The position numbers and the translations under genes are program-made. From IMG/VR virus record IMGVR_UViG_651053023_000006: 19,487 bases of DNA. One strand, 5' to 3'. This document shows, piece by piece, positions 1 through 18,091 of this stretch (position 1 is its first letter; each line of letters opens with the position of its first letter). The notes under the pieces were generated by a model, which had not been told where the DNA came from, did no database searches, and saw only the letters and a program-made list of their open reading frames with translations. Source of the stretch: a virus. Its lineage: Duplodnaviria; Heunggongvirae; Uroviricota; Caudoviricetes.

Positions 1-1119
1 TCAAATAACCAACTTAACCCATTCCTGACCTCGAGTATCGTTATAGCGATCGGTGGTTGCCTGGACTTTATGTCCTAGTAATGTTTTTGTATCGATACCC
101 TGTGCACGGTACAGCCGTTCTGATAGAGAGCGTTGTTCATGAAATGTTGGCGGAGTTTTTCCTGCTGGTGGAATTATCCCAGCCAGATCCCGTGCTTTGG
201 CAAAGTAGTCGCTCAGGTTGTCTTTACTCATCGGCTTCGGTTGTTTCTGGTGCCGACTATGGATTAGATATGGACTTAATATTCTGTCTCGGCACCCATC
301 AATAACTTCTTTTAACGTTATCCCAATGGCATCACAGCGTAGTGTAAGCGGTAACGCCAGACGCATTCCGGTTTTTCCCTGGGTGATATGCAAATGTTCG
401 TTCCACACATCTGAAAAACGCATGTGGTAAATGTCATCACGGCGCTGACCAGTAACAATCGCAAGAAGCATTGCGTTACGGATAAAGTGTTTTTCTGGCG
501 TTGCGTTGTAAATTTTTTGCCAGTCTTCCAGGGTGAGTCTGGCTCTGGTTACTTTAGGGATCGGTTTACGGGTGGCCTCCGGAGGATTCCATCCAGGAGG
601 AACTTCCCCTGCATGCTGTGCTTCTTTATAAATATCAACCCATAATCCACGATTTACTCTCGCTGTGCTGACCATGTCTTTATCCAGCCACTCATCCAGT
701 ATTAATGCAAAGTCTCTTACTTCCAGTTCTTTCAATGGGTGGTTTCCCAGACGGGAAACCAGATATGCAGCCATTCTGGCTTTTTCTTTGTGAGTTGTAG
801 CTGCAATATCTCCATTTTTCAGTCGCGTGTCCTGTATTTTCAGATATCGATCAACCCATGCCTTTAATCTGATACCCCGACGCGTTGTTGCTGACGGACT
901 TTCATCAATTTTGCGCATGAAATATTCAGCCTCTGCTGCAGCTATTCGCTGATTGGCTGTGGAAGCGATTTTTTCTGCCTTACCTTTGTCTGTTCCGAGC
1001 CCGTGAAATTTTCCAGTCACAGGGTTTTTATACTGGTAGTAAACTCTGCCAGTTCTGCGATCAAATTTTTCGTAAAGTCCGGCTACGTCAGTGCTGTTTT
1101 TTCGTGGCCTCGGTGACAT
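1..1119 (-). CDS. int: Phage integrase, tyrosine recombinase (lambda Int family)
   Basis: 372-aa ORF with ATG at 1117-1119 and stop at 1-3. The C-terminal region (PPTFHEQRSLSERLY, LLGHK, RYNDTRGQEW) parallels the catalytic region of lambda Int as I remember it. Start overlaps the upstream xis-like ORF, as in lambda. Confidence 0.9.
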   Translation of the reverse strand: MSPRPRKNSTDVAGLYEKFDRRTGRVYYQYKNPVTGKFHGLGTDKGKAEKIASTANQRIAAAEAEYFMRKIDESPSATTRRGIRLKAWVDRYLKIQDTRLKNGDIAATTHKEKARMAAYLVSRLGNHPLKELEVRDFALILDEWLDKDMVSTARVNRGLWVDIYKEAQHAGEVPPGWNPPEATRKPIPKVTRARLTLEDWQKIYNATPEKHFIRNAMLLAIVTGQRRDDIYHMRFSDVWNEHLHITQGKTGMRLALPLTLRCDAIGITLKEVIDGCRDRILSPYLIHSRHQKQPKPMSKDNLSDYFAKARDLAGIIPPAGKTPPTFHEQRSLSERLYRAQGIDTKTLLGHKVQATTDRYNDTRGQEWVKLVI

Positions 1120-1357
1120 GAGTTAAAATCTCCTTCAGTGCATCATCATCGCCAGTATGAATTTCCGGCGCAATTCCTGTTTCACCAGGTCCAACAAATA
1201 CTGCTCGGCGATCTATCAGCCAACGCCCACGAATTTTTTGTGGTCTTGGAACGATGTATCCTAGTTTTCCGTATTTCACCAGGGTAGTGTTTGTTATTGG
1301 GAGACTGAACCGTTTTGGCTTCCACTCATCGAGCGTTATCAGGTACTGTTCGCTCAT
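1088..1357 (-). CDS. xis: Excisionase (Xis-like)
   Basis: Small ORF directly upstream of int and overlapping its start. The track start at 1366 is GTG; I prefer ATG at 1355-1357, which has GGAG about 9 nt upstream. N-terminus (YLITLDEW...) resembles lambda Xis (YLTLQEW...). Confidence 0.6.
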   Translation of the reverse strand: MSEQYLITLDEWKPKRFSLPITNTTLVKYGKLGYIVPRPQKIRGRWLIDRRAVFVGPGETGIAPEIHTGDDDALKEILTHVTEATKKQH

Positions 1358-1418
1358 GGCTATCACTCCGGAACGCGCCAGTTGCAGAATACCAACGACA
1401 ACTGGCGACGGTTGAACA

Positions 1419-3284
1419 TTAAAAATCAGCCTGACTCGGGATCAGTTTTTGCCAGATAGCTGAAACGTATTTTGCCTGGTAACGAGCGTCATCAAGTGCA
1501 TTATGGCGCTCACCTTCGAATGGAATAGCCGTTCTGGCATCGAAGTCTATGGCTTTCCCCAGCTCAACGATTGTGCGTACATCGCGATCGTTGTAGTAAC
1601 GCCACGGGCAGGGGATCCCCTGCCGTTCGTATGAACGGCGCAAAATCGTGTTGTCGAAGTTGGCTCCATTTCCCCAGACCTGAACAAAAAATTCACCGGA
1701 GTTTTCGTCGATAAATTCTCGCAATTGTAACAGTGCATCATCTAACGGGATTTCATCGGTCATAATGGCAGATTGCGCTTCGCGTGATTGCTTCAGCCAC
1801 CATTTAATGGTGTTCCGATCAATGACTCCGCCAGCAGTTTCCAGATCGATAGTCTTACTAAATTCCGGTCCCATATCTCCGGTTTGCGGATCGAAAAATA
1901 TTGCACCTATTGAGATAACCGGGGCATCAGGATTTTTTCCCATGGTTTCGAGGTCGATCATTAGATGGTCACACGTCCTGCTGGTGGATGTGATTTCGTG
2001 ATGACCGTTCATCTTAATTGAGTGATCTGCCGCCTCGCCAGTTTCATTATCGCTGGCGTGGTCCTGAGCGCTGCCAGCATTCTCCTTGTGTGGATGTTCA
2101 GCGCCTTCCATTTTCTCCGGATCGTTTTCCTGAACTTCAACCTGATTCTCTTCATCGAATGTTTCCTGGTATGTTGCGTCGCCCATCACCGCGCCACAAT
2201 CAGGGCAGTTGCCGCCACCGCTCTGACCGCAGGCGGTGCAGACTTTTTCCGCTTCCTGTTGCGCTACTGGCTCAGGTTGTTTTGTTTCCGGCTCGTTTTG
2301 TAACGCATTTGGGCTGTTTTGTTCCGCTTTCTGGTCGTTCTGTTCCGTTTCTTGCTGGTTCTGGTTCACAGAATCGCGGGTTTCAATCCCCTTCACCCAT
2401 TTCGGATCATTCGGGTCGCTAATCCCTGCAACAAATTCTCCGCGAGAGGCAGCAAGCAGTTCATTAGCGTCAGGCTGGCTGATATTGGCTGCCTGCATAA
2501 TTTTGTTTACTTCGTCAGCGGTAACTTTTACCGGCTCTGGTTGTGCGGTCGTGTCAGATGCACCAGTATTTTGTTGTGAGCCTGAGTATGTACCGTTTTT
2601 GCGGGCAAAATATTCTTCTTTCGTGATTTCAGTAGCCCCTGCAGCCAGCGCCTTATTCAGACCAGAAAGTTTGTTTGCACGACCATATTTTTCGCCATCC
2701 TTATCGGTGAAAAGGAAGTAGAACGGCCCCTCACGCTCTACAGATGGTTCAGTTTCCAGCGTGCTTTCATTTTTTTGGGTATCAGATACTTCAGTTTCCA
2801 CTGCATCAGTTTGTGCTGCTGACGGCTGGAGAATATCAGCAGCGTTCTGGTCTGTTTCTTCATCCTCAAACACGCCCTTTGTCGCCAGGTATTCAGTGAT
2901 GTATTTGTTCAGTGCTACGGGATCTTTGTGAATGTCGATCGGACGCTCACGGACAAGGCCAAAAATAGTCTGACGGTCGTAGCGGACGGCATCGGGTTGT
3001 TTGCGCATTGATGCGGAAATGCGCTTCCAGTCTTCGCGATCTTTGTCGATAACTTCATTGTTTCTGGCTAACCAGCAACGCGCGCCAGATTCGGTTTTAA
3101 ACGTTTTGCTTTTGGTATATGTCATCGCGGTGAACGTACCGTCCTGGTTGGGGAACACGCCGCATACCAGAGATTCGTTGTTGCCAAGATCGATAGTATC
3201 CATGCTGACCTCATTTCCCCTTAACGCCGGGGTAGCGGAACAAAAACCTGCTGCATAGTTATTAAAGTTGAACCCTGCCGTCAT
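1419..3284 (-). CDS. Phage exonuclease, C-terminal DnaQ-like DEDDh 3'-5' exonuclease domain with acidic N-terminal region and CxxC...CxxC zinc ribbon
   Basis: 621-aa ORF. C-terminal motifs read in the translation: IDLETMG (Exo I), NGANFD (Exo II), HNALDDA (Exo III). Zinc ribbon [16 protein letters not shown]. Start is ambiguous: ATG at 3282-3284, or ATG at 3201-3203 which has GAGG 7 nt upstream. Confidence 0.7.
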
Positions 3285-3374
3285 GTTCTTACGCCTCGGG
3301 CTGGCTACTTAACCCCTGACCACTGCCTGGTAACTCGAAGTATTGCCCTGCATTCTGTGGGGCGGGGTGGGTTG

Positions 3375-3425
3375 GTATTTTTAGTTTAATAAACATTAAA
3401 CTTAAGTCAAGTAAAAACTAAACCA
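3375..3425. promoter_or_regulatory. Candidate left operator region (OL-like) with inverted TAGTTTA / ACTAAAC motifs
   Basis: Sequence TAGTTTAATAAACATTAAACTTAAGTCAAGTAAAAACTAAACC. Its reverse complement shares ACTTGACTTAA and TTTATTAAAC-ACTAAA with the regulator-cro intergenic region at 4390-4430. Confidence 0.35.
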
Positions 3426-3494
3426 CGGGGCGTAACAAACACAACGCTTTTGATAAAGTCGTTGCGGTTGTTATGTTTCTATTGGTAGTGAAAG

Positions 3495-3773
3495 TTAGGG
3501 AAACTGGCGTCTTGCGTGGATCACGTTTACTACTTCAACGCTTGATGTTGTTACGCGGTATAGAATTATATAGTTAGGGTGGGCTACAATCTCACGCAAG
3601 CCAGGTACTCTGTCGCTTGGTGGGTATAAATACGGATGTTCGGATAACGGCAGCACACAACCCCTTAATCGCTGCCATAAGCGTTCAGCCGCATCTATGT
3701 CGAAACGAGCAATATAGCTAGTTATATCATCTAGGTCGGTATCTGCGCTTTCAAGCCATAACACGGGTAACAT
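3495..3773 (-). CDS. parE2: ParE-family type II toxin (ParE2-like)
   Basis: Track ORF trimmed to the internal ATG at 3771-3773, giving 92 aa. Typical ParE pattern (DLDDI...YRV...EVVNVIHARR). Start overlaps the stop of the upstream antitoxin (3775-3777). Confidence 0.75.
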   Translation of the reverse strand: MLPVLWLESADTDLDDITSYIARFDIDAAERLWQRLRGCVLPLSEHPYLYPPSDRVPGLREIVAHPNYIILYRVTTSSVEVVNVIHARRQFP

Positions 3774-3774
3774 T

Positions 3775-3966
3775 TTACTGCTTGCTCCGTTCCTTGCGCA
3801 TTTTAGCAAAGCGTTCTGCCATTCTGCGCTCAACTTCGTCATGGGGAATTGCTGGGCGCGGATCTGCAAGGCTCGTTGCTACTTTCGCACGCAGCCATTC
3901 GTTGTAACTGTTTTCTTGTTCAATGGTTTCAAATTCAGAAACCATTGGTGAAAGGGCTCTATTCAT
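3775..3966 (-). CDS. paaA2: Antitoxin of ParE toxin (PaaA2-like, 63 aa)
   Basis: ATG at 3964-3966 with AGGAGG-type RBS on the coding strand (GGAGGAAACATG). 63 aa (MNRALSPMVSEFETIEQENSYNEWLRAK...) immediately upstream of and coupled to the ParE gene. Size and sequence match my recollection of PaaA2 from the E. coli O157 paaR2-paaA2-parE2 module. Confidence 0.65.
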   Translation of the reverse strand: MNRALSPMVSEFETIEQENSYNEWLRAKVATSLADPRPAIPHDEVERRMAERFAKMRKERSKQ

Positions 3967-3986
3967 GTTTCCTCCGGTTTTATAAC

Positions 3987-4358
3987 TCAGGCGCGGCGGC
4001 ATTTTTGCGCCGCAATCCATCTCGCTATGAGATCTTCCATTGATTCTTTTTTCTGCTTTAACTCGCTGATTATCTGGCGTTGCTCATCCTCAGGGAAGGC
4101 TGAAAAAATCTGCAATAATTCCAGTTGATTAGACGTTAACCCTGCATGTGGTGGAGAAACTTCCGGTTGTTCTGCGTATTCCGCATCCAGATACCCTTCC
4201 GGCATCCCGTATGTTTGCTCTATTCTTCTGGCAGCCTTTTCTCCAAACGAGGCCCTCCCACTCATTAGTTGAGATAGGTAGCTCTTCTCTTTGGGTGGCA
4301 GAGTTTTATCTTTAAACCACTCCTTGAGACGTAAACGGCGAATTTCTTTTTTTTGCAT
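3987..4358 (-). CDS. paaR2: HTH transcriptional regulator in the prophage repressor (CI) position, PaaR2-like
   Basis: Track ORF starts at GTG 4421; I prefer ATG at 4356-4358 (123 aa). It lies divergent to the cro-like gene and is first in an operon with the antitoxin and toxin. There is no SD before the ATG, which would fit a leaderless mRNA. Confidence 0.6.
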   Translation of the reverse strand: MQKKEIRRLRLKEWFKDKTLPPKEKSYLSQLMSGRASFGEKAARRIEQTYGMPEGYLDAEYAEQPEVSPPHAGLTSNQLELLQIFSAFPEDEQRQIISELKQKKESMEDLIARWIAAQKCRRA

Positions 4359-4359
4359 G

Positions 4360-4455
4360 TGGTAATTATCTTTAGTAATCACTAAACAAGCAAATACTTG
4401 ACTTAATGGTTTATTAAACACTAAACTCGCAAAAAAACACTAAACCGAGGAAGGT
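4360..4455. promoter_or_regulatory. Divergent promoter/operator region (OR-like) between regulator and cro-like gene
   Basis: Three direct copies of CACTAAAC (4379-4386, 4419-4426, 4437-4444). Candidate rightward promoter TTGACT (4397-4402), 17-nt spacer, TAAACT. The cro-like gene has a strong RBS (GAGGAAGG). Confidence 0.4.
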
Positions 4456-4758
4456 ATGACATTAAAAGAGTTTATTAAATCATTGAGGGTTGGTGATGCT
4501 AAGAAATTCGCGGCCAGACTTGGTGTATCGCCATCTTACTTATCGCAAATGGCGTCTGGACGAGCAGCTATATCTCCAACCCGCGCCCTTATGATCGAAT
4601 CTGCGACGGAAGGCCAAGTAAGTAGGGCGGAGCTACGACCCCATGATTGGGAGCTTATTTGGCCTGAGTATGCGAGCGGCATTCGTTTGGGGCAAACACA
4701 TGTAGTTCATGCTGAAGGTGATTGTAGTGCATGCTTATCTGATGGAGTTGATTCATGA
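4456..4758 (+). CDS. Cro/YdaS-like HTH regulator
   Basis: 100-aa ORF, ATG at 4456, with an HTH segment (FAARLGVSPSYLSQMASGRAAISPTRAL). Divergent from the repressor-like gene. Its stop overlaps the next start as ATGA at 4755-4758. Confidence 0.7.
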   Translation: MTLKEFIKSLRVGDAKKFAARLGVSPSYLSQMASGRAAISPTRALMIESATEGQVSRAELRPHDWELIWPEYASGIRLGQTHVVHAEGDCSACLSDGVDS

Positions 4759-5179
4759 AAATCAAGCATGAACACATCCGCATGGCGATGAATGCCTGGG
4801 CGCGTCCTGATGGCGAAAAAGTTCCAGCAGCTGAAATAACCCGGGCTTATTTTGAGCTTGGTATGACGTTCCCAGAGCTATATGACGACAGGCATCCGGA
4901 AGCCCTGGCTCGCAATACTCAGAAAATTTTCCGCTGGGTGGAGAAAGACACCCCTGATGCGGTTAAAAAATTCAGGCGCTGTTACCGGCGATCGAAAAGG
5001 CAATGCCACCTCTGCTGGTGGCCCGAATGCGCAGCCACAGTTCAGCCTATTTTCGGGAGCTGGTGGAGATGCGGGAACGACTGGTGAGAGACGCTGATGA
5101 TTTTGTCGCAGTGGCGATCGCTGGTTTCAATCAGATGAATCGTGGTGGTCCGGCGGGAAATGCCGTGGTGATGCACTAA
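4755..5179 (+). pseudogene. cII/YdaT-like regulator gene interrupted by a frameshift at an A6 run (4965-4970)
   Basis: Frame 1 from ATG 4755 stops at 5087. The frame shifted by -1 after the A6 run reads cleanly to TAA at 5177-5179 (...IQALLPAIEKAMPPLLVARMRSHSSAYFRELVEMRERLVRDADDFVAVAIAGFNQMNRGGPAGNAVVMH). A single extra A would give one ORF of about 141 aa. Confidence 0.5.
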
Positions 5180-5202
5180 AAGCACGGTGTTCGGAGTTTT
5201 TT

Positions 5203-6150
5203 ATGAGCAGCAAGCTTCATGGTCTTGTCTGGGAAGGGTGTGCCTTCACCGGCATGATCTTATCCAGGGTGGCAGTTATGGCTCGCCTTGCAGATTACAG
5301 CAATGACGAAGGTGTGTCATGGCCTGCAGTGGAGACCATTCGTCGTCAGATTGGGGCAAAGAGTGAATCAACGGTTAAAGCTGCGATAGCAGAACTGGAA
5401 AAGAACGGCTGGCTGACGAAGGAGGAACGTAAGGTCGGTGGGCGTAATGAAAGCAATATCTACCGTCTTAATGTGGAAAAACTCGAAGCAGCAGCAGCGG
5501 CAGCGCGTGAGGCATATAAACCGAAAAGAAAAATTAGCCAGGCAAAAAATGACCCGTCAAATATTGACCCCTCAACGGTTGACCCGTCAAATTTTGATGG
5601 ATCAACCGTTGATAAAAAACAGCCGGTTAGGGGGGCGATGGTTGGCCCCGATCCGTCAGTATTAAAACCTGATCCGTCAGATAAAAGATCTTTTCGTCCG
5701 GACGCTTCGCAACCGGACCCGCAGACGGCTGAACAGGATTTTTTAACCCGACACCCTGACGCGGTTGTGTTCAGTGCGAAAAAACGCCAGTGGGGCAGCC
5801 AGGAGGATTTAGCGTGTGCGCAGTGGATCTGGGGACGAATCGTGAGTCTTTACGAGCAGGCTGCCAGCGATGATGGCGAAATCATGCGACCGAAAGAACC
5901 CAACTGGACTGCATGGGCCAATGATGTGCGCACAATGCGGATGCTGGATGGCAGAACTCACAGACAAATTTGCGAAATGTTTGGTCGGGTACAGCGGGAT
6001 CCATTCTGGGTAAAAAACGTCATGAGCCCGTCAAAGCTTCGCGAAAAATGGGATGAGCTGGTTATTCGTCTGGGGCGTTCGCCTGTACAGCGTTGCGTGA
6101 ATCACATTTCTGAACCGGACACCGAAATTCCGCCGGGATTCAGGGGGTAA
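5203..6150 (+). CDS. Replication initiator, lambda O-like, with iteron-encoded linker
   Basis: 315-aa ORF with GGAG RBS. N-terminal winged-helix-like segment. The central peptide repeats (DPSNIDPSTVDPSNFDGSTVD...PDPSVLKPDPSD) are encoded by DNA iterons. It is followed by a DnaC-like loader gene. Confidence 0.7.
   Translation: MSSKLHGLVWEGCAFTGMILSRVAVMARLADYSNDEGVSWPAVETIRRQIGAKSESTVKAAIAELEKNGWLTKEERKVGGRNESNIYRLNVEKLEAAAAAAREAYKPKRKISQAKNDPSNIDPSTVDPSNFDGSTVDKKQPVRGAMVGPDPSVLKPDPSDKRSFRPDASQPDPQTAEQDFLTRHPDAVVFSAKKRQWGSQEDLACAQWIWGRIVSLYEQAASDDGEIMRPKEPNWTAWANDVRTMRMLDGRTHRQICEMFGRVQRDPFWVKNVMSPSKLREKWDELVIRLGRSPVQRCVNHISEPDTEIPPGFRG
5548..5690. repeat. Iteron array inside the O-like gene (candidate ori)
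   Basis: Repeated TGACCCGTCAA-type units (ATGACCCGTCAAAT, TTGACCCCTCAAC, TTGACCCGTCAAAT, GGATCAACCGTTGAT, CGATCCGTCAGTA, TGATCCGTCAGAT), each with partial dyad symmetry, followed by an A/T-richer stretch. Confidence 0.5.
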
Positions 6151-6156
6151 CGAAGC

Positions 6157-6903
6157 ATGAAAAATATTGCGACAGGCGGTGTTCTTGAACGCATCCGTAA
6201 GCTGGCTCCGCAGCATGTAACCGCGCCATACCGAACAGTGGACGAGTGGCGCGAGTGGCAACTTGCAGAAGGCCAGAAGCGTTGCGAGGAGATCAACCGC
6301 CAGAATCGTCAGTTGCGGGTGGAAAAAATTCTGAATCGCTCCGGCATCCAGCCGTTGCACCGCAAGTGCTCGTTTGCGAATTACCAGGTGCAGAATGACG
6401 GCCAGCGATACGCGTTGAGCCAGGCGAAATCCATCGCCGATGAACTGATGACCGGATGCACAAATTTCGCATTCAGCGGAAAACCTGGTACCGGGAAAAA
6501 CCACTTAGCGGCGGCTATCGGGAATCGCCTGCTGAAAGATGGCCAGACAGTGATTGTGGTTACCGTGGCTGATGTCATGAGTGCTCTACACGCCAGCTAT
6601 GACGACGGGCAATCAGGCGAAAAATTTTTGCGGGAACTGTGCGAAGTGGATCTGCTGGTTCTTGATGAAATTGGTATTCAGCGCGAGACGAAAAACGAGC
6701 AGGTGGTACTGCACCAGATTGTTGATCGCCGGACAGCGTCGATGCGCAGCGTGGGGATGCTGACAAACCTGAACTATGAGGCCATGAAAACATTGCTCGG
6801 CGAGCGGATTATGGATCGCATGACCATGAACGGCGGGCGCTGGGTGAATTTTAACTGGGAGAGCTGGCGCCCGAATGTTGGTCAGCCAGGTATTGAGAAG
6901 TAA
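6157..6903 (+). CDS. DnaC-like helicase loader (phage P / YdaV-like AAA+ ATPase)
   Basis: 248 aa. Walker [14 protein letters not shown] and Walker [19 protein letters not shown]. Immediately downstream of the O-like gene. Confidence 0.85.
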
Positions 6904-6925
6904 TTTTTACCGGGAGGAAATTTTA

Positions 6926-7696
6926 ATGGAGACCGTTTTTGACGCACTGAAAGCGATGGGAAAAGCCACGTCGGTAGAGCTGGCTGCGCGACTTGATATC
7001 AGTCGTGAAGAAGTACTGAACGAGCTGTGGGAACTGAAAAAGGCTGGCTTCGTTGATAAAAGCGTATACACCTGGCGTGTGGCTGGCGAAGGTGAATCAG
7101 GGGTAGCCGAAGAGCAGCCAGCACAATCTGAAGTACAGGATGTGCTAACCAGGGAGGTCGAACGAAAAGTTACCGCTGACATGATGATTGAGTTTATCGG
7201 TCAGGAGGGAGCTAAAACGTGTGAGGAACTGGCGGGTAAGTTCGGTGTCAGCACTCGCAAGGTTGCTTCCACGCTGGCGGTAGTAACCGCAACGGGGCGG
7301 CTGGCACGCGTAAACCAGAACGGTAAATTTCGCTACTGCATACCGGGCGATAATTTACCAGCAGAGCCGAAAGCTGCATTGGTAGCGGAAACTGATGGTA
7401 AAGCCTTTCCTCAGCCAGCAAGTGTTGCGTTACCAGTACAGGAAGCTGCAACACAGGAAGATATTAAAACAGAAACTGTGGCGGACATTGTGCAGTCGCT
7501 GCCATCGTTCACTGAAACACGAGCTGATGGCCTGATTTTACCATCGCTGCATATGGCAAACCGCGAACTGCGCCGGGCGAAAAGTCATGCCCAGAAGTGG
7601 GAGCGAGTTTGCGCCGCGCTGCGGGAGCTGAACAAGCACCGGGATATTGTCCGACAGATTGTCGATTCCTCCAGTCGTATTGTGCCGGAAAAGTGA
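6926..7696 (+). CDS. Hypothetical phage protein with two winged-helix-like segments
   Basis: Track ORF trimmed to ATG 6926, which has a GGGAGGA RBS. Two similar segments ([30 protein letters not shown] and [30 protein letters not shown]). Confidence 0.55.
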
Positions 7697-7712
7697 TTCC
7701 TGGGGAGGGCTT

Positions 7713-8168
7713 ATGGCAAAAGTATTTACACAGGAAGAGCGAGAAAAAATTAAAGGGCAGGTTGTTGAGCTGGTACGCCAGAGCGGGCGCGAGACGTTAC
7801 GGCAACTGGAAGCGAAAACTGGTGCGACAAGATATCTGATGAGTGTTATCGCCAGAGAGCTGGTTGCCAGTGGCGATGTATATAACTCTGGCTACGGGTT
7901 ATTCCCGTCTGAACAGGCTCGTAAGGACTGGCAAAACGCCCGCAAAAAACTCTCAAGGGCAAATCTGAAGAAACCATCTGTGGTTGATCCGGACCTTATC
8001 TGGTCATTACCAGACGGAGAAATGCGTCGCTACGATAGGCGCCTGAATATAATCTGTCGCGAGTGCCGGAAGAGCGAAGCTATGCAGCGTGTACTGGCAT
8101 TTTACCAGAATGGTTTTCGAGAGACATTCGGTGAACAGGTTGTGCATGAGGGAAATCATGGCGCTTAG
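7713..8168 (+). CDS. Hypothetical phage protein (N-terminal HTH-like segment)
   Basis: Track ORF trimmed to ATG 7713, which has a GGGGAGGG RBS. 151 aa. No catalytic motif recognised. Confidence 0.55.
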   Translation: MAKVFTQEEREKIKGQVVELVRQSGRETLRQLEAKTGATRYLMSVIARELVASGDVYNSGYGLFPSEQARKDWQNARKKLSRANLKKPSVVDPDLIWSLPDGEMRRYDRRLNIICRECRKSEAMQRVLAFYQNGFRETFGEQVVHEGNHGA

Positions 8169-8278
8169 GCAATTGTGTAGACGCGTTGACGGTCGAAAGC
8201 ATAGGAGGGTTGATTGATCGTTCTAGTTATGCTGTCAGAGCGAAAGCGCAGGAACTGGGTATCAATAGGATGTTAAGA

Positions 8279-8287
8279 GGGGGGGGG
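8279..8287. repeat. G9 homopolymer tract separating two ORF fragments
   Basis: Nine consecutive G read directly in the sequence. The upstream fragment ends ...INRMLRGGGL and stops at TAA 8291-8293. The downstream frame encodes YNQSKKHPQSDIELVRKLHQCGVPRRDIAVKREMSLGMINQYVYFDRRAHEV and stops at 8445-8447. Confidence 0.9.
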
Positions 8288-8595
8288 TTATAACCAATCA
8301 AAAAAACATCCGCAAAGCGATATTGAGCTAGTGCGGAAGCTTCATCAGTGTGGAGTTCCCCGCCGTGATATCGCTGTAAAACGCGAAATGTCCTTGGGCA
8401 TGATTAATCAGTACGTTTATTTCGACAGGAGAGCGCATGAAGTTTGACATCTAGACAACTGGGGGAGCGCTGAAAACGTTCTTAATTGATGTTGGATTCG
8501 CTTTACATACTGAACTGTTTGGCTGAAAGACACGGTAGTATCACCAATCAAGGTGCTTTTGATAAACGCTTGTGTGTTTGTTTTTTAATCCATTG

Positions 8596-8624
8596 TTGAC
8601 AACTAGGTTAGTTTTCCATATCAT
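8596..8624 (+). promoter_or_regulatory. Candidate sigma70 promoter for the ParA-like gene
   Basis: TTGACA (8596-8601), 17-nt spacer, TATCAT (8619-8624), about 30 nt upstream of ATG 8655. Confidence 0.5.
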
Positions 8625-8654
8625 CAATAAAAGTGTAAAACTAATGGTGGCGAT

Positions 8655-9701
8655 ATGACTAGTGAATCAAATGTTAATGCTCTGATAGAGCGTCAATTCG
8701 AAGTTGCTGACGGTAATGTAAGAAGTCTTAATTTGCCGAAATATGATAAATATACAGTATGTAATTTACGGGGAGGCATTGGTAAGACATCTTTAACTTT
8801 TAATCTGTCATATTTGGCGGATAACGCATTAATCGTGGATACGTGCCCGCAAGGAAATTTATCATATTTTTTTGACAATAATTATGCATCTTCGTCTAGC
8901 ACAACTGCAAATGACCTCTTAATGCCTTATTTTGTTCCAGGGCTTGGATTTGCAACGCGTGCTGCAAAGCTAGTATCATCAACTAATGCTTGGTTTGCGG
9001 GCAAGAATAACTATTTTATTCAATCTGATAGTCAACTTTATCTTCTACCTACGCAAATGGCGAATGCTCTGGCTCAAGCCAGAACAATTTCTGGGGCTAC
9101 TCAGCAGGTTGTTATTGATACAATTCTTTTTTCTCTGAAGAAAGAAATAGCCAGAGAAATGGTTGAAACTGGTACTACAAAAGCGTTAATTGATACATCA
9201 CCTTTTTTCTCTGGAGCGACGCATTTATCTTGGCATGCAACAGATGCTTTAATAGTTCCAGTGAGGACAGATCAGCAATCGATTAATTCATTAAGATTAC
9301 TTATTGATACTCTGACTAAACCAACATCAGAATTTAGAAAGATAATGCCGTCTGATGGCCATACACCAAAAATTCAGATGGTGGTTATTACCCATTGCGG
9401 ATGGTCAACAGTGGCAGGAGCAAGGAATAAACCAAATCAACAGACAAAAATGTACATCGAAGCTGTAAGAGAGGTAATTCGACAAAATATTAGTAATTTT
9501 ACAACAGATGATCCTAATAATCACATTGTGATTCTTGATGATTTTCTGGGTAGTGGCAGAATGTCAAGTGCTAAGTCTAAACCATTAGAGTTGTTAAATC
9601 CAGGAGATGCAATGACTGTGAATAGAGTTAGGACATCCGTGAATTTATCTGTTAACAAAATAAAAAATGAATTAAAGTTCATTCACAACTCCATATGGTA
9701 A
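8655..9701 (+). CDS. ParA/MinD-superfamily P-loop ATPase with atypical deviant Walker A (Arg replaces the signature Lys)
   Basis: 348 aa. Motifs: YTVCNLRGGIGKTSLTFNLSYL (deviant Walker A, R for K), LIVDTCPQGNLS (compare ParA LLIDLDPQGN), ALIDTSPFFSG ... DALIVPVRTDQQSINSL (Walker B region). About 30-aa N-terminal and about 60-aa C-terminal extensions. Region is visibly AT-rich. Confidence 0.8.
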   Translation: MTSESNVNALIERQFEVADGNVRSLNLPKYDKYTVCNLRGGIGKTSLTFNLSYLADNALIVDTCPQGNLSYFFDNNYASSSSTTANDLLMPYFVPGLGFATRAAKLVSSTNAWFAGKNNYFIQSDSQLYLLPTQMANALAQARTISGATQQVVIDTILFSLKKEIAREMVETGTTKALIDTSPFFSGATHLSWHATDALIVPVRTDQQSINSLRLLIDTLTKPTSEFRKIMPSDGHTPKIQMVVITHCGWSTVAGARNKPNQQTKMYIEAVREVIRQNISNFTTDDPNNHIVILDDFLGSGRMSSAKSKPLELLNPGDAMTVNRVRTSVNLSVNKIKNELKFIHNSIW

Positions 9702-9858
9702 ATGACATTTTATTTGAATAATCTGGATTGATAATTATTGTTACATTAATTGTTATTAATTCTAAATAATCCTATCGTTCTTCAGGATGAGATAATTTAT
9801 ATTTATTTGTGTTGTGATTTTTTGAATTTATTTAGGTTTATGAACTGTTTTAGATGAA

Positions 9859-9978
9859 ATGAATCATGAATACGAAATTGTTGCGGTACTGATAACGAGG
9901 AAAGACCTCTGCGAGGTACGAATCCGAACCGGCCAGACGGAGGTCGCTGTCTTCACAGCTTACGAACCTGAGGAGTAA
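9859..9978 (+). pseudogene. hok/gef-family type I toxin remnant, 5'-truncated
   Basis: 39-aa frame MNHEYEIVAVLITRKDLCEVRIRTGQTEVAVFTAYEPEE. The C-terminal 28 residues match the conserved Hok/Gef/RelF tail (LTRKxLCEx[RH]xRxGxxEVAxFxAYE). The N-terminal transmembrane helix is missing and no hydrophobic stretch is encoded upstream in any frame. GC-rich hairpins and a terminator follow, as in hok mRNA 3' regions. Confidence 0.6.
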
Positions 9979-10046
9979 GAGACCAGGCGAGGGAGAAATC
10001 CCTCGCCACCTCTGATGTGTCAGGCATCCTCAACGCACCCGCACTT

Positions 10047-10069
10047 AACCCGCTTCGGCGGGTTTTTTA
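10047..10069 (+). terminator. Rho-independent terminator (hok-remnant 3' end)
   Basis: ACCCGC-TTCG-GCGGGT hairpin (10048-10063) followed by T6. A strong GGCGAGGGA-GAAA-TCCCTCGCC hairpin lies upstream at 9986-10007. Confidence 0.7.
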
Positions 10070-10116
10070 TTGGTTGACAAAATTATGAATATGCACCAAT
10101 ATCTTGGTTGACAAAA
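10070..10116 (+). promoter_or_regulatory. Candidate promoter/operator with two direct TTGGTTGACAAAA repeats
   Basis: TTGGTTGACAAAA at 10070-10082 and 10104-10116. Each contains TTGACA. Located between the terminator and the start of the downstream two-gene operon. Confidence 0.4.
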
Positions 10117-10151
10117 GTCGTTTTTTGCACGGATTAGGCGGAGAAGTGTCT

Positions 10152-10745
10152 ATGCAGAACCATCCATTCCCTTGGGAGTTCTTTCCTGAGTTAACAGAGG
10201 AGCGTTTAACCATTATAGCTGAGGAGTTGCTCAGGATACAGGATATTACTCATGAGTTATTGTCATCGCCCTATGATGATAATTACACTCGTGGTGGTTG
10301 TACATTTGGGCGTCAGCGGCAGGCGTTGCTACAAATGTGCGTACGAAAGACATATGACTGGTTAAGACTACTTAATCCTGGCATGGATCTTACGTTTTCA
10401 ATTGGGAATGTCCCTATTCGTTTCTTTACTGATGACGCAGATAACCCCAAGAAACGCGGTTTTTTCAAAAGAAATGATGCTGATCGACTCTTTGAGTCAG
10501 AGGAGACTACTCCAACTATGCATCGCTTTGTGGTTGAAAAGCCTGAATTTGAAGGCGAGGGTGGTAGAGTCATTTTTAATGGCTATAACGTGTTTGGTGA
10601 GATCGTGTCAACTTGGACATATGGTGCGGACCGTGTTGTTATGCTGAACTCTGTCGATGATGTACCTCCAGCACCGGTACCTATCGAACTAGAACCTATC
10701 AGTGCGTCTAAGACTGAGAAGGAAAAGAAACAAAATAGCAAATAG
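10152..10745 (+). CDS. Hypothetical protein (197 aa), first gene of a two-gene operon
   Basis: Track ORF starts at TTG 10104; I prefer ATG 10152 with GGAG about 9 nt upstream. AT-rich codon usage. No family motif recognised. Stop TAG at 10743-10745 is 10 nt before the next start. Confidence 0.65.
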   Translation: MQNHPFPWEFFPELTEERLTIIAEELLRIQDITHELLSSPYDDNYTRGGCTFGRQRQALLQMCVRKTYDWLRLLNPGMDLTFSIGNVPIRFFTDDADNPKKRGFFKRNDADRLFESEETTPTMHRFVVEKPEFEGEGGRVIFNGYNVFGEIVSTWTYGADRVVMLNSVDDVPPAPVPIELEPISASKTEKEKKQNSK

Positions 10746-10755
10746 TGGGTGAAAT

Positions 10756-11877
10756 GTGTTTAACGGTACTAATTTAAGACTTGCTCGTCTGTATCACGAG
10801 CTATCTCTGGAGCAGGTTGCTGAGAAGGTTGAAAAAACACGCCAGTATGTACAGCGACTGGAGTCTGGTTCAGCTACTCCATCCCCAGAGCTTATAAATA
10901 AATTAGCCGAGGTTTTGCGCGTGAAGCCCGCCTTTTTCGAAGGGCAGGAACATTCTCCTGTTAATGAAGAGATTGTACATTTTCGTAAACGCGCCTCGAC
11001 AAGGATGTCAACGAAGCTATCAACACTCGCTAAGGCTGAGTTTTATCGTCGTTTTATTGATGTATTTGAAGATAACCTTAATTTGTCACCTGTTCGATTT
11101 CCTGAATTTCGTGTCCATACACAAGAAGATATCGAGCGAGCGGCAGAAAAATGTCGTATTGAGTGGGGCTTAGGCTTTGGCCCAATTGAAAATATGACTC
11201 GCCTTGCCGAGAAACTTGGGGCGTTTGTTACTTCATTTGACTCCGTTTCGGATGAAGTAGATGCACTGTCTGTTCCTCTACGAAGGCCTTTTATTGTTCG
11301 AAATACAGCTAAAAATTCACCTTGTAGGCAACGCTTTGATATTGCTCATGAGGTTGCCCATTTGATTCTTCATGAAGGAATTTCTACTGGGGATAGATTA
11401 ACTGAATCCCAGGCAAACCGTTTTGCCTCTGCTCTGTTGCTTCCCAGAACGTCGATGGCGAAATATTTTCCAAGACCTGTGGGGGGGAGGATAAATTGGC
11501 AGGGACTAAGCCAATTTAAGTTGACATGGAAAGTAAGTAAGGCTGCCATTGTTTACAGGGCTCATCAATTAGGACTTTTGACTGATGAGCAGTACAGAAC
11601 TGCATTTATGGGGTTGAAACGGAAAGGGGAAGCTATTGATGAAAAAGAAGATTATCTAATCCCTCATGAGCGTCCTGAGTTATTCCGTCGGGCTTTATCG
11701 TTTTTATTTGAAGAGTTAGGATACGACCCACAGCGTATAGCTGATGAAATGGATATAGAAGTGGACATTTTTTATGAGTTAGTAGGAGATGATCTTCCTG
11801 CGGTTCATGAACTGCCAGGAAGTGGTGATGTTGTTTCACTACAATCTTACCGAACTCTTAGAGGCAAAATTCACTAG
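10756..11877 (+). CDS. XRE-family HTH fused to ImmA/IrrE-type zinc metallopeptidase (COG2856-like)
   Basis: GTG start at 10756. N-terminal HTH (LRLARLYHELSLEQVAEKVEKTRQYVQRLESG...ELINKLAEVL). Central HEXXH motif (FDIAHEVAHLILHE) in the arrangement typical of ImmA/IrrE peptidases. 373 aa. Confidence 0.75.
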   Translation: MFNGTNLRLARLYHELSLEQVAEKVEKTRQYVQRLESGSATPSPELINKLAEVLRVKPAFFEGQEHSPVNEEIVHFRKRASTRMSTKLSTLAKAEFYRRFIDVFEDNLNLSPVRFPEFRVHTQEDIERAAEKCRIEWGLGFGPIENMTRLAEKLGAFVTSFDSVSDEVDALSVPLRRPFIVRNTAKNSPCRQRFDIAHEVAHLILHEGISTGDRLTESQANRFASALLLPRTSMAKYFPRPVGGRINWQGLSQFKLTWKVSKAAIVYRAHQLGLLTDEQYRTAFMGLKRKGEAIDEKEDYLIPHERPELFRRALSFLFEELGYDPQRIADEMDIEVDIFYELVGDDLPAVHELPGSGDVVSLQSYRTLRGKIH

Positions 11878-11881
11878 GCAT

Positions 11882-11904
11882 AACCCGCTTCGGCGGGTTT
11901 TTTG
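11882..11904 (+). terminator. Rho-independent terminator, identical hairpin to 10047-10069
   Basis: ACCCGC-TTCG-GCGGGT followed by T6, starting 5 nt after the stop at 11875-11877. Confidence 0.7.
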
Positions 11905-11978
11905 TTTTACGTATTCTGGTTTACAATCTACAGGCTAGCCTGAACAACTGGCACCTGCTGCGCCAGCAGAGAAAACCG

Positions 11979-12251
11979 ATGGCGCACAATACCAAACATC
12001 ACAATTCTGATACCGACCTTGCCAGCTGGCACGGGCGGCGTTCTCATACATTCAAATATGACTGGTACCAGCATGCCCCATGCACTGAAGAACAGGCCGA
12101 ATGGCTGATTCAGAACTACCGCAGGCGTGGGTACGACTTTCAGAAAGACCTCAGCCCTGACTTCCGACACTGGATAATTTCTGTCAGGCTCCCTTATTCC
12201 GAACGCCCACCGCGTCCGTCCCGCACATTCCAGCAACGCATCTGGAGGTAA
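11979..12251 (+). CDS. Hypothetical small protein (Rem-like by position)
   Basis: 90-aa ORF, ATG at 11979. Its stop TAA (12249-12251) sits next to the GGAGG RBS and GTG start of the downstream DUF968 gene. Gene order resembles rem-ydfU-Q in Qin-type prophages. Confidence 0.45.
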   Translation: MAHNTKHHNSDTDLASWHGRRSHTFKYDWYQHAPCTEEQAEWLIQNYRRRGYDFQKDLSPDFRHWIISVRLPYSERPPRPSRTFQQRIWR

Positions 12252-12252
12252 C

Positions 12253-13308
12253 GTGCGGGTATTACTTCGACCTGTTCTGGTGCCGGAACTTGGGGTGGTT
12301 ATCGTTAAGCCAGGTCGTGAATCCATGCAGGTATTCCATAACGGCAGAGTGCTGGTTGAACCGGAGCCAAAAAGCATGCGCGGTCTGCCGTCCGGGGTCG
12401 TTCCTGCCGTTCGCCAGCCGCTGGCGGAAGACAAATCTCTGCTGCCATTTTTCAGCGATGAGCGGGTGATTCGTGCTGCCGGCGGCGCTGGTGCACTGTC
12501 TGACTGGCTCCTGCGTCATGTTAAATCCTGCCAGTGGCCACACGGCGATTATCATCACAGCGAAACCGTTATTCACCGTTATGGTACCGGCGCAATGGTG
12601 TTGTGCTGGCACTGCGACAACCAGCTGCGTGACCAGACATCCGAATCACTCGAGCAACTTGCTCATCAAAACCTGTCAGCATGGATGATTGACGTCATAC
12701 ACCATGCAATGAATGGCACGCAGGAGCGGGAATTATCGCTGGCTGAATTATCTTGGTGGGCAACCATAAATAACGTAGCGGACGCACTACCGGAGACGGT
12801 ATTACGTCGTTCGCTGGGATTGCGCGCGGAAAAAATTCGCTCAGTATACCGCGAGAGCGACATCGTGCCGGGAGAGCAGACCGCCACCAGCATACTGAAG
12901 CAGCGCACAAAAAATCTTGCGCCGCTGCCTCACGCCCACCAGCAAAACCCGCCACAGGAAAAGACAGTGGTCAGCATTGCCGTTGATCCGGAGTCACCGG
13001 CTCAGTATCTCCAGCGCCAGAAACCACAACGGGAAGAGATGCCTGTATACACGCGCTGGGTAAAAACGCAGAAATGCATGACGTGCGGTAATCAGGCAGA
13101 TGATCCGCATCACATCATTGGTCATGGACTGGGAGGGATGGGAACAAAGGCTGACGATTTGTTTGTTATTCCATTGTGCCGTAAATGTCATAACGAACTG
13201 CACACCGGGGTAAAAGATTTTGAAGAAAAACACGGCAGCCAGCTGTTGTTGCTGATTCGTTTTTTAATGCACGCGAGAAATTCGGGTGTCCTGAAGTGGA
13301 AAGCATAA
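12253..13308 (+). CDS. DUF968 (YdfU-like) prophage protein with C-terminal HNH/zinc-finger-like motif
   Basis: 351 aa, GTG start with GGAGG upstream. C-terminal CMTCGN...HHIIGHG...CRKCHNELH cysteine/histidine cluster. Stop TAA is adjacent to the rusA ATG. Confidence 0.65.
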   Translation: MRVLLRPVLVPELGVVIVKPGRESMQVFHNGRVLVEPEPKSMRGLPSGVVPAVRQPLAEDKSLLPFFSDERVIRAAGGAGALSDWLLRHVKSCQWPHGDYHHSETVIHRYGTGAMVLCWHCDNQLRDQTSESLEQLAHQNLSAWMIDVIHHAMNGTQERELSLAELSWWATINNVADALPETVLRRSLGLRAEKIRSVYRESDIVPGEQTATSILKQRTKNLAPLPHAHQQNPPQEKTVVSIAVDPESPAQYLQRQKPQREEMPVYTRWVKTQKCMTCGNQADDPHHIIGHGLGGMGTKADDLFVIPLCRKCHNELHTGVKDFEEKHGSQLLLLIRFLMHARNSGVLKWKA

Positions 13309-13674
13309 ATGACCGAACGCATAGAATTTGTTTTGCCTTACCCGCCAACGGTGAACACCTACTGGCGACGTCGTGGCAGCACATATTTTGTATCAAAAGC
13401 CGGTGAGCGTTATCGCCGTGATGTGGCGCTAATTGTTCGCCAGCAGCGGCTGAAATTAAACCTGTCCGGACGGCTGGCGATAAAGGTGATTGCAGAGCCA
13501 CCGGATAAACGTCGTCGTGACCTGGACAATATCCTGAAAGCACCACTGGATGCGCTGACGCATGCCGGACTACTCATAGACGACGAGCAGCTTGATGAAA
13601 TCAATATTGTGCGCGGTCAGCTCGTTCCTGGTGGGCGGCTGGGGATAAAAATCACAGAATTGGAGTGCGCATGA
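13309..13674 (+). CDS. rusA: RusA-family Holliday junction resolvase
   Basis: 121 aa. PYPPTVNTYW and RRRDLDN motifs match the RusA pattern (PWPPSNNRYY, RRRDLDN). Stop overlaps the Q-like start as ATGA. Confidence 0.85.
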   Translation: MTERIEFVLPYPPTVNTYWRRRGSTYFVSKAGERYRRDVALIVRQQRLKLNLSGRLAIKVIAEPPDKRRRDLDNILKAPLDALTHAGLLIDDEQLDEINIVRGQLVPGGRLGIKITELECA

Positions 13675-14360
13675 ATAACCAGTATTTACAGTTTGTGCGC
13701 GAGCAGCTCATTATCGCCACCGCTGATTTGAGTGGGGCAACAAAAGGTCAGCTTGAAGCCTGGCAGGAGAATGCCATGTTTGATACAGGGCGTTACAGGC
13801 GTAAAAAAATCCGGTACCGCGATGAAGTGACTGGAAAAATGATAACGCGGGATAATCCACCAATCCCGGGAAAACAATCACTGGCGAAAGGCTCATCAAT
13901 TGCCCTGGTCAGCCCGGTTGAGTTTTCGACATCATCATGGCGGCGGGCTGTGCTGTCTCTTGAAGAGCATCATAAAGCCTGGTTGTTGTGGTGTTACGGC
14001 GGAAACATTTGCTGGGAGCATCAGATCGCGATAACACAGTGGGCGTGGAACGAATTTAATACTCAATCCGGTACCAGAAAAATTGCAGGGAAAACGCAGG
14101 AACGCCTGAAAAAATTAATCTGGCTGGCGGCGCAGGCAGTAAAAGCAGAACTTTTTGGTGGGGAAGGTTATGAATACCAGGAGCTGGCATTACTGGCGGG
14201 AGTGACAACTAAAAACTGGTCCAAAACATTTACTCGTCACTGGGTTGCAATGAAACACATTTTTTACCGACTGGATAGTGGGGCTTTATTGTTTGTAATG
14301 AGAACGCGTTCAAAACAAAAGGCGGCATTTTCAAAGCAAAGTGTTGCAAAAGTAGATTGA
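13671..14360 (+). CDS. Q-like late antiterminator (candidate)
   Basis: 229-aa ORF (ATG 13671, GGAG RBS) in the canonical position after rusA and before a promoter, tRNA and terminator. The family call rests mainly on position and size. Confidence 0.5.
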   Translation: MNNQYLQFVREQLIIATADLSGATKGQLEAWQENAMFDTGRYRRKKIRYRDEVTGKMITRDNPPIPGKQSLAKGSSIALVSPVEFSTSSWRRAVLSLEEHHKAWLLWCYGGNICWEHQIAITQWAWNEFNTQSGTRKIAGKTQERLKKLIWLAAQAVKAELFGGEGYEYQELALLAGVTTKNWSKTFTRHWVAMKHIFYRLDSGALLFVMRTRSKQKAAFSKQSVAKVD

Positions 14361-14532
14361 AAGGCATATATTTTATGCAAATCTGATATTTTGCCGATTT
14401 TGTACGTGATGGCAAAAGCAAACAAAACCCGCCCAAATGTGGTTTTTTTTGTGCCACTTATCTCGGATAGACATGGTGAATGCGCTGGTGGAGGAAGTAA
14501 GGGTGATTTTTAACCAGGTGATTTTTGAATGC

Positions 14533-14561
14533 TTGCAACATTGATTTTGTAACGTTATTAT
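14533..14561 (+). promoter_or_regulatory. Strong sigma70-like promoter directly upstream of the tRNA
   Basis: TTGCAA (14533-14538), 17-nt spacer, TATTAT (14556-14561). The tRNA 5' end is at 14571. Confidence 0.5.
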
Positions 14562-14570
14562 CCTGCGCCC

Positions 14571-14646
14571 GGCCCTTTAGCTCAGTGGTGAGAGCGAGCG
14601 ACTCATAATCGCTTGGTCGTTGGTTCAAACCCAACAGGGGCCACCA
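14571..14646 (+). tRNA. tRNA with CAU anticodon, Ile2 (lysidine) type by similarity to ileX; tRNA-Met not formally excluded
   Basis: 76 nt including CCA. Acceptor stem GGCCCTT/AGGGGCC. Anticodon stem AGCGA/TCGCT with loop CTCATAA (U33, CAT, A37). T arm GTTGG-TTCAAAC-CCAAC. Closely resembles E. coli tRNA-Ile2 as I remember it. Confidence 0.9.
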
Positions 14647-14657
14647 TATACAACAAA

Positions 14658-14693
14658 GGGTTAGCTAATAAATCAGCTAACCCTTTTTCTTTT
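14658..14693 (+). terminator. Rho-independent terminator downstream of the tRNA
   Basis: 9-bp stem GGGTTAGCT/AGCTAACCC with an 8-nt loop, followed by TTTTTCTTTT. Confidence 0.6.
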
Positions 14694-14704
14694 GCCTTTG
14701 AATT

Positions 14705-14727
14705 GGGTCAGGTAATGGGTCAGGTAA
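14705..14727. repeat. Tandem direct repeat GGGTCAGGTAA x2
   Basis: GGGTCAGGTAATGGGTCAGGTAAG read directly, at the junction between the tRNA terminator and the island. Confidence 0.6.
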
Positions 14728-14745
14728 GCTTTTTCTCCATCTGAC

Positions 14746-15591
14746 TCAGATGGCTGATAGTTGCCCCGGATAATGCTTCGCAATGATGTCATTTAGCCGA
14801 TCAACCAGTTCCGGTTTTCTGAACGTGATGTGCGCGGAGCCCTTCTTAAAGTATCTGATGCTGAACATCTCATCTTCATAGCTCTCTTTACCCTGAACAG
14901 ACTGAATGTGATCATCCAGACGAATAGTGATGTTTTCCCGGTTGTCGGGGATCGGTTTGCCGCTGAACAGATGCAGCATTCTTTCCAGGTCGGCAAGTCG
15001 ATCGGCCTGTTGCCCGGTGATAAGATGAAACCCCCACCGGTCCCACCTCACCAGGTTGTTGACGATAATTTTACTGCTAAATTTGCAGGGGCAATTGGTT
15101 TTGTAATTCCAGCTCAGCCCTCTGAAGACGTTGATCACCCCTCGCTCAAACACCTCATCCTTATTCTGGTGCAGTTGTTCAAATGTGCTCAGAATGTTCG
15201 CTTCACTGATTTCCGGAAAATTATCGTACTCCAGTGACCGGTACCATGTATCACGGGCCTGCGCATCCATTAATGACAGCATCCCGGAACGTTGCATCAG
15301 ATCACGCCAGAGTTCGCGATCAAGATTGTGTGTGATGGCTTTCATTGCCGTTTCAGGTTTCTCCATGAGCCAGCAGCCACAGCGAAAATCCTGTTTCATC
15401 GCCCAGCCCAGTGCGGTTTTACCGCCAATACTTTCTGTCATTGCTGAGATTTCAGCCAGTTGCCGGATAAGTGTGTCGATTTGCAGCAGTGAACTCTTTC
15501 GTACAGCCAGAATGTGGCGGATACTGGTTGAGCAGATAACGTCCGTATGCCCGTTGACAACTTCCGGACGGGAGGCTGTGATATCAGACAT
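14746..15591 (-). CDS. Conserved hypothetical protein, distal gene of a CP4-type island
   Basis: 281-aa ORF, ATG at 15589-15591 with AGGA upstream. Context: downstream of a cbtA/cbeA-type module. Confidence 0.6.
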   Translation of the reverse strand: MSDITASRPEVVNGHTDVICSTSIRHILAVRKSSLLQIDTLIRQLAEISAMTESIGGKTALGWAMKQDFRCGCWLMEKPETAMKAITHNLDRELWRDLMQRSGMLSLMDAQARDTWYRSLEYDNFPEISEANILSTFEQLHQNKDEVFERGVINVFRGLSWNYKTNCPCKFSSKIIVNNLVRWDRWGFHLITGQQADRLADLERMLHLFSGKPIPDNRENITIRLDDHIQSVQGKESYEDEMFSIRYFKKGSAHITFRKPELVDRLNDIIAKHYPGQLSAI

Positions 15592-15873: not shown

Positions 15874-15892
15874 ACTGTGTCTTTTGTCCAGG

Positions 15893-18077: not shown

Positions 18078-18091
18078 TGTTCCGGCCCCTT

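Follow-up and report, generated by a model that had tools for sequence, protein, structure and literature searches.

An immunity region of a lambda-like Escherichia coli prophage carrying the known paaR2-paaA2-parE2 module, with PaaR2 as its probable CI-analogue repressor

The closest described counterpart of the locus analysed here is the paaR2-paaA2-parE2 locus of CP-933P, a cryptic prophage of E. coli O157:H7 EDL933 (Sp12 in strain Sakai), which was studied by Jurenas et al. (mBio 2021; PMC8630535) and had first been described as a three-component toxin-antitoxin (TA) system (Hallez 2010, as cited in PMC8630535). The three genes are co-transcribed (PMC8630535), and the start of the transcript from PRM was mapped by 5' RACE to the ATG of paaR2, which is translated without a leader, as confirmed by N-terminal sequencing (MQKKE). 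The 97-bp region upstream of paaR2 was analysed by EMSA and DNase I footprinting, in which PaaR2 protected 78 bp and YdaS 65 bp, and gfp reporters indicated that PaaR2 represses both PR933P, the promoter of ydaS-ydaT, and PL933P, which is located beyond parE2, while PRM933P is autoregulated, being activated at low and repressed at high levels of PaaR2 (PMC8630535). YdaT activated a PRE-like promoter, so that YdaS and YdaT behave like Cro and CII, and bistability was demonstrated for the PaaR2/YdaS pair (PMC8630535). The TA pair is addictive, since the locus stabilises an unstable plasmid and gives post-segregational killing; in single cells it was transcribed in both the RAE2-on and the ydaST-on states, with no SOS signal or ParE2 activation in either of them, and CP-933P did not respond to mitomycin C (PMC8630535). 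The authors suggested that the TA pair had been inserted into an immunity region (PMC8630535), and in a later study paaA2-parE2 was described as replacing rexA-rexB, and PaaR2 as replacing CI of lambda (Prolic-Kalinsek et al., 2023; PMC9986795).

As judged from its sequence, the segment at 3495-4358 of the window (i.e., the whole stretch of 19,487 nucleotides of viral DNA analysed) is this known module of lambda-like E. coli prophages, published in 2021. Three co-oriented open reading frames of 123, 63, and 92 amino acids occupy its minus strand, with the coordinates and lengths given in the original prediction. The first is paaR2 (4358..3987; ATG at 4358, TGA at 3989-3987), coding for the CI-analogue repressor, followed after 20 nt by paaA2 (3966..3775; ATG at 3966, TAA at 3777-3775), coding for an antitoxin without a DNA-binding domain, and after a single nucleotide by parE2 (3773..3495; ATG at 3773, stop codon at 3497-3495), coding for a toxin of the ParE family. 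The 20-nt spacer contains the motif GGAGG at 3975-3971 ahead of the paaA2 start codon. The tight coupling of the last two genes is as predicted, but not the proposed overlap of toxin start and antitoxin stop: the junction reads TAA-A-ATG, with a one-base spacer at 3774. The start codons of the longest mechanically called reading frames (GTG 4421 and TTG 3869) were dropped, the ATG codons being in agreement with the experimentally determined N-termini of the proteins.

The likeness to the O157 module that had been expected was borne out by sequence searches against the PDB, which returned 100% identity for ParE2, PaaA2, and the N-terminal domain of PaaR2. ParE2 belongs to the Pfam family ParE_toxin (PF05016, E 1.9e-16), is identical in 92/92 positions to PDB entries 5cw7_B/5cze, and has the same sequence, with zero changes, in O157:H7, in the prophage of the porcine strain ETEC4090, and in phage Evi. 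PaaA2 contains the PaaA2 domain (PF21217, E 1e-19) as its sole domain and equals the copy of the O157:H7 chromosome (L003), its residues 2-63 being 100% identical to PDB 3zbe/5cw7, the crystallised E. coli O157:H7 protein. PaaR2 consists of an N-terminal HTH domain and a C-terminal helical oligomerisation domain, without an S24 domain; its residues 1-65 show 100% identity to PDB 7nkv/8c3k, which carry the depositors' title 'Phage repressor protein CI', and the entire protein matches its O157:H7 counterpart in 121/123 positions, both differences (E66G, V67G) being located in the linker. The identification of PaaR2 rests on these PDB identities and on the literature, because a Pfam search with the 123-aa protein gave no match, to S24 or any other family, and PADLOC gave none for PaaR2, PaaA2, or ParE2. 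All components of the three-component system are thus present, namely a ParE-fold toxin of about 92 aa, a PaaA2-type antitoxin, and an upstream co-oriented gene for an HTH regulator. The toxicity of ParE2, its neutralisation by PaaA2, and the resulting addiction have been published for identical proteins (PMC8630535) and may, on the strength of this identity, be expected in the source strain as well. The module and its intergenic region occur in 594 of 5,426 complete E. coli genomes, with at least 99% identity in 579 of them; the corresponding RefSeq labels are 'hypothetical protein' for paaR2, 'transcriptional regulator' for ydaS, and 'toxin YdaT family protein' for ydaT.

The OR region between paaR2 and ydaS (4359..4455) comprises 97 bp, is identical base for base (100%) to that of O157:H7 (L003), and contains a leftward PRM, predicted to give a leaderless transcript, and a rightward PR together with repeated operators. 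A hexamer scan assigned a PR-type promoter to the plus strand (TTGACT at 4398-4403, 18 nt, TAAACT at 4422-4427), while inspection of the minus strand revealed PRM as TTGCTT (4393-4388), a 17-nt spacer, and GATAAT (4370-4365), separated from the paaR2 ATG by the 6 nt taccac. There is no Shine-Dalgarno sequence ahead of this ATG, as had been noticed before, and its absence together with a -10 hexamer ending 6 nt before the start codon fits a leaderless paaR2 mRNA, as far as this can be read from the sequence. The region further contains a 24-nt direct repeat (4371-4394/4410-4433). Downstream of parE2, a leftward PL-type promoter with OL operators (3383..3424, minus strand) represents the counterpart of the published PL933P/OL1-3; it reads TTGACT-16 nt-TAAACT (3410..3383) and thus uses the same hexamers as PR. 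The two regions share an inverted repeat, with arms at 3384-3407 and 4396-4419 and agreement in 12/12 positions for 3402-3413 with 4395-4406. Half-sites resembling the published motif GTTTAGTAA are found in OL at 3384-3394 and 3406-3423 and also cluster in OR; their significance lies only in this grouping, since the GTTTAGTAA half-site is not enriched over the window (54 matches, 45 expected). A divergent repressor/cro gene pair around a short multi-operator region and a second OL/PL set beyond the repressor operon, as in lambdoid switches, are therefore both present. In a sliding comparison, the segment from about 3214 to 4813 is common to the window, O157:H7, and phage Evi at 96-100% identity, and beyond it identity drops to about 66-90%. 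A conserved cassette between divergent flanks is commonly seen in lambdoid immunity regions, which are mosaic in character.

The cro-like gene from which the operon had been described to diverge is ydaS (4456..4758, plus strand), located 97 bp from paaR2 and coding for a Cro analogue of 100 aa. YdaS matches the Pfam families YdaS_toxin and HTH_3 (a match to P22_Cro is weak and lies under the Pfam cut-off), retrieves PDB 8c7k, 'Phage antirepressor protein Cro' (E 6.9e-63), and agrees with the O157:H7 protein (L003) in 99/100 positions, the one difference being A37T. At the ydaS/ydaT junction, in the PRE region, TTGATTCATGAAAATCAA (4748..4765, plus strand) exactly matches the published high-affinity operator OM of YdaT, TTGATTN6AATCAA (PMC9986795). 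The motif occurs once in the 19.5 kb, which is within chance expectation for this pattern, and OM is therefore identified by its position at the junction. The following gene for the CII analogue, ydaT (4755..5180, plus strand), is frameshifted: a homopolymer at about 4965-4970 contains A6, where ETEC4090 and phage Evi have A7, and the frame shifts after residue 72 or so, giving a reading frame that ends at 5087, while the correct frame resumes in an ORF at 5003..5179. The alignment of the product to PDB 3c4r/8bt1 accordingly ends at residue ~75. Since a YdaT variant consisting of residues 1-96 without the tetramerisation domain fails to bind DNA (PMC9986795), the allele of the window is predicted to be inactive. 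Either the A6 run is real, in which case the gene for the CII analogue would be a pseudogene, or it reflects a sequencing error in the homopolymer; as the sequence stands, the window retains the operator and a frameshifted gene for the CII-type activator.

Taken together, the region is best regarded as an immunity switch that belongs to a lambda-like prophage of E. coli and is of the CP-933P/Sp12 kind, with PaaR2 as the CI-analogue repressor co-transcribed with a TA pair, a reading to which we assign a probability of about 93% and which none of the observations contradicts. PaaR2 would be made from a leaderless mRNA starting at its own ATG, occupy the operator repeats of OR (97 bp) as well as the second set, OL, beyond parE2, repress the rightward ydaS-ydaT promoter and the leftward PL, and autoregulate PRM. 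The genes paaA2 and parE2 would be read from the same mRNA, downstream of paaR2, and take the place that rexA-rexB have in lambda. Because PaaA2 lacks a DNA-binding domain, transcription of the pair should depend on the switch proteins of the phage, and, the antitoxin being labile, ParE2 would be set free in cells that lose the cassette, an addiction stabilising the immunity region. The gene order, the identity to characterised proteins and operators, and the promoter and operator motifs come from the present analysis, and DNA binding, repression, leaderless translation, bistability, and plasmid stabilisation from published work on identical or near-identical sequences. The same behaviour in the prophage of the window and retention of the immunity region as the natural role of the TA pair appear plausible on this basis.

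That a TA pair is placed under a phage lysis-lysogeny switch is already published with experiments. The proposal that the TA regulator is the prophage repressor, or also acts as such, is likewise supported and had been published for a near-identical sequence (PMC8630535), and its predicted repression of the rightward cro promoter is covered by the gfp reporters on PR933P, the intergenic region of the window being 100% identical. The suggested wiring of toxin expression to lysogeny holds only in part: in the published single-cell data, the pair is transcribed in both switch states and the toxin is activated in neither, so that toxin activity is only weakly coupled to lysogeny.

As in lambda (cI-rexA-rexB, OR/OL, cro, cII), the repressor and cro genes diverge from a short region with several operators, a second operator set is located at PL, and accessory genes are co-transcribed behind the repressor; the repressor mRNA, leaderless in lambda, is probably so in this system as well, and the promoter at the cro/cII junction is the target of an activator resembling CII. 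However, the components differ. No sequence similarity between PaaR2 and lambda CI was detected in the comparisons made, PaaR2 lacks the S24 autocleavage domain and is reported to be octameric (PMC8630535), and its switch is reported to contain four inverted repeats and three pseudosymmetric operators, whereas lambda has three operators (PMC8630535). In addition, YdaT shows a POU-type fold rather than the CII fold (PMC9986795), and the cargo is a ParE-type TA pair here, but RexAB in lambda. PaaR2 should be regarded as a CI analogue and not as a RecA-inducible CI, because it has no S24 autocleavage domain. With classical two-gene parDE systems of type II, the locus shares the ParE-fold toxin, a small labile antitoxin, tight gene coupling, and post-segregational killing. 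It is distinguished from them by an antitoxin without a DNA-binding domain and the lack of autoregulation by the TA complex, control of transcription having passed to a repressor encoded separately upstream and to phage regulators resembling Cro and CII (PMC8630535).

Gene order and spacing are the same as in CP-933P, OR is identical, and PL/OL and the YdaT operator are conserved, but the prophage of the window is not CP-933P. The backbone is different, the flanks being only about 66-90% identical to those of O157, and the window shows the frameshifted ydaT and lacks 2,350 bp of the PL operon. The closest relative is the prophage of the porcine strain ETEC4090, which is 99% identical over positions 1-14646 of the window, adjoins potC, and has a different integrase; the O157 prophage adjoins ynfA. 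None of the complete E. coli genomes covers 80% or more of the window. The 2,350-bp deletion was recognised relative to ETEC4090, has its junction at 3055-3063, and takes out ydfD, dicB, two small genes, and the N-terminus of an exonuclease, so that the host-killing dicB region is gone from the window. It results in a 621-aa fusion ORF (1419-3284) directly downstream of PL, which combines DUF1391 with the C-terminal part of an Rv2179c-like 3'-5' exonuclease, and its junction has no exact match among species-representative genomes. At the other end, a tRNA gene follows Q at 14571-14646 (anticodon CAT, of the Ile2 type in RefSeq), and homology to the ETEC4090 prophage stops at its 3' end. Past this tRNA, in the remainder of the segment at 14571-19487 of the window, the end of a CP4-type island occurs in place of the lysis genes, with DUF4942, DUF5983/YeeW, CbtA toxin, CbeA antitoxin, DUF987, RadC, an antirestriction protein, and DUF932. 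The tRNA-Ile/DUF4942 junction exists in other E. coli, but the arrangement of Q, tRNA, and island was found in 0 of 5,426 complete genomes, which suggests either that two tRNA copies have recombined or that the assembly is chimeric. The frameshift in ydaT, the deletion in the PL operon, and the Q/tRNA region running into an unrelated island make a decaying, non-inducible prophage probable, and the maintenance of lysogeny that had been ascribed to the locus may be vestigial in this copy. An intact immunity/TA core inside a decayed element fits the published idea of stabilisation without proving it.

Between the replication genes and Q, the same prophage also carries a Rosmer anti-phage pair (window 10104-11877), which consists of RmrT (213 aa; PADLOC E 7e-93) and RmrA (373 aa; HTH_3 and Peptidase_M78, E 4e-201). 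The copy of RmrA in the window may be the intact one, because the corresponding region of ETEC4090 is annotated as two CDS. A gene for a ParA-family ATPase (348 aa, AAA_31) is located upstream of this pair at 8655-9701.

The alternative that survives best, although it appears unlikely, is that a TA pair in the position of rexAB would serve mainly as a device for abortive infection or superinfection exclusion and not as an addiction module. It draws on gene order and on co-transcription with the repressor as known for rexAB in lambda (PMC9986795), which is an analogy only, and on the Rosmer pair of the same prophage, which makes defence cargo plausible. However, PADLOC matches none of the three proteins of the module, and the published support refers to post-segregational killing and plasmid stabilisation, with no activation of the toxin under the conditions tested (PMC8630535).

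Far less probable is the view that PaaR2 represents only the dedicated third component of the TA system, i.e., the DNA-binding module of a 'split antitoxin', with the true prophage repressor encoded elsewhere. The first description as a three-component TA system (Hallez 2010, as cited in PMC8630535), the antitoxin without a DNA-binding domain, and the missing S24 domain of PaaR2 would all agree with it. It conflicts with the published footprints and reporters, according to which PaaR2 represses PR and PL (PMC8630535), and with the gene content of the window. Lack of operator binding or repression on the cro side together with a separate CI-like repressor outside the window, or inactivating changes in the toxin, had been named beforehand as observations that would speak against PaaR2 in this role, and neither was encountered; among the window ORFs of at least 190 aa, no other CI-like or S24 protein is present, and ParE2 is unchanged. 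The sole other protein combining an HTH domain with a protease domain, the 373-aa HTH and Peptidase_M78 protein at 10756-11877, was considered as a second repressor and rejected, since it is RmrA of the Rosmer system, with RmrT encoded upstream.

The relatives of PaaR2 also argue against a dedicated TA regulator. Homologues with 44-76% identity were found in 27 other species of a bacterial collection with one genome per species, the hosts including Xenorhabdus, Photorhabdus, Arsenophonus, Morganella, Yersinia, Raoultella, and Enterobacter. PaaA2 or ParE2 were detected within 3 kb at 0 of the 27 loci (tblastn, E<=1e-3, with ORF inspection in a subset of the loci), a procedure that very divergent toxins may escape, while a divergent YdaS homologue is kept at 21 of them and a YdaT homologue at many. 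In four of these homologues, from Yersinia aleksiciae, Acerihabitans, Mycoavidus, and a Neisseriaceae genome (L019 3001-3633, L028 3001-3630, L023 3001-3657, and L030 2965-3624), a PaaR2-like N-terminal domain with 45-64% identity is followed by Peptidase_S24; the N-terminal domain of PaaR2 is 58% identical to that of the Yersinia repressor (E 9e-31). An N-terminal HTH domain followed by Peptidase_S24 is the classical architecture of CI and LexA. The distribution of S24 indicates, at the level of sequence comparison, a swapping of domains between RecA-cleavable and non-cleavable repressors sharing one DNA-binding domain. Because the TA-free relatives mostly keep YdaS and some carry S24, PaaR2 is placed among phage repressors rather than dedicated TA regulators, and the comparison supports the view that it is primarily a phage repressor, the TA pair probably being cargo added in Escherichia, which accords with the insertion suggested by Jurenas et al. 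(PMC8630535).

Among viral contigs, all loci with a PaaR2 of 98-100% identity carry the TA pair, except for two contigs that end before its position. In addition, 11 IMG/VR loci (L084-L093 and L095) represent a four-gene variant with a 71-74% identical regulator of 123 aa and 89-96% identical PaaA and ParE proteins, in which a second PaaR-like paralogue is encoded between regulator and antitoxin (for example, L084 3001-4313). This paralogue of 131 aa combines a canonical HTH_3 N-terminal domain with the shared C-terminal domain (37% identity over 76 aa). Since the YdaS partner of this variant is only 62-76% identical, it probably represents a different immunity specificity with nearly the same TA pair. 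In Escherichia, the TA pair (89-100% identical) would then be combined with two or more heteroimmune sets of regulators, of which one has an extra PaaR-like paralogue.

The module is also carried by phage Evi (LR597642), known here from its sequence record, whose 40-kb genome contains annotated terminase, portal, capsid, tail, and lysis genes and is apparently complete; the record contains no other annotated repressor. An intact, 100% identical parE2 is present in this genome (L002 6196-6474; about 24917-25195 of the record) but is left unannotated, and paaA2 and paaR2 are labelled there as hypothetical protein and putative regulator.

Least probable of all is an inert remnant, with intact-looking genes having lost expression or function in a decayed prophage, as the frameshift in ydaT, the 2,350-bp deletion in the PL operon, and the island replacing the late genes after the tRNA might suggest, since versions with identical proteins and operators have proved active in experiments, the core at ~3214-4813 is conserved at 96-100% across the window, O157, and Evi with flanks of only 66-90%, and at least 99% identity is kept in 579 genomes.

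With PaaR2 regarded as the CI-analogue repressor of the prophage, the main value of the analysis is the correct annotation of genes that are labelled otherwise in RefSeq and, in the case of parE2, left unannotated in the phage Evi record. Beyond this, it adds PaaR2 homologues without a TA pair and others bearing S24, the four-gene variant, the occurrence of the module in a phage genome that looks complete, and an intact core in a decayed prophage, all of which are refinements of a known system that could guide work on TA cargo as a stabilising element of immunity regions. These observations may tentatively be joined to the effect that PaaR2/YdaS constitutes an independent type of phage immunity, and that a TA cargo, gained only in the Escherichia lineage by a CI derivative lacking S24, enforces retention of the immunity core; we consider this combined proposal possible rather than established. 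If it is true, the module of phage Evi would be a working lysogeny switch with an induction route other than RecA, and an intact TA-linked core between decayed flanks would be natural evidence for its retention during prophage decay.
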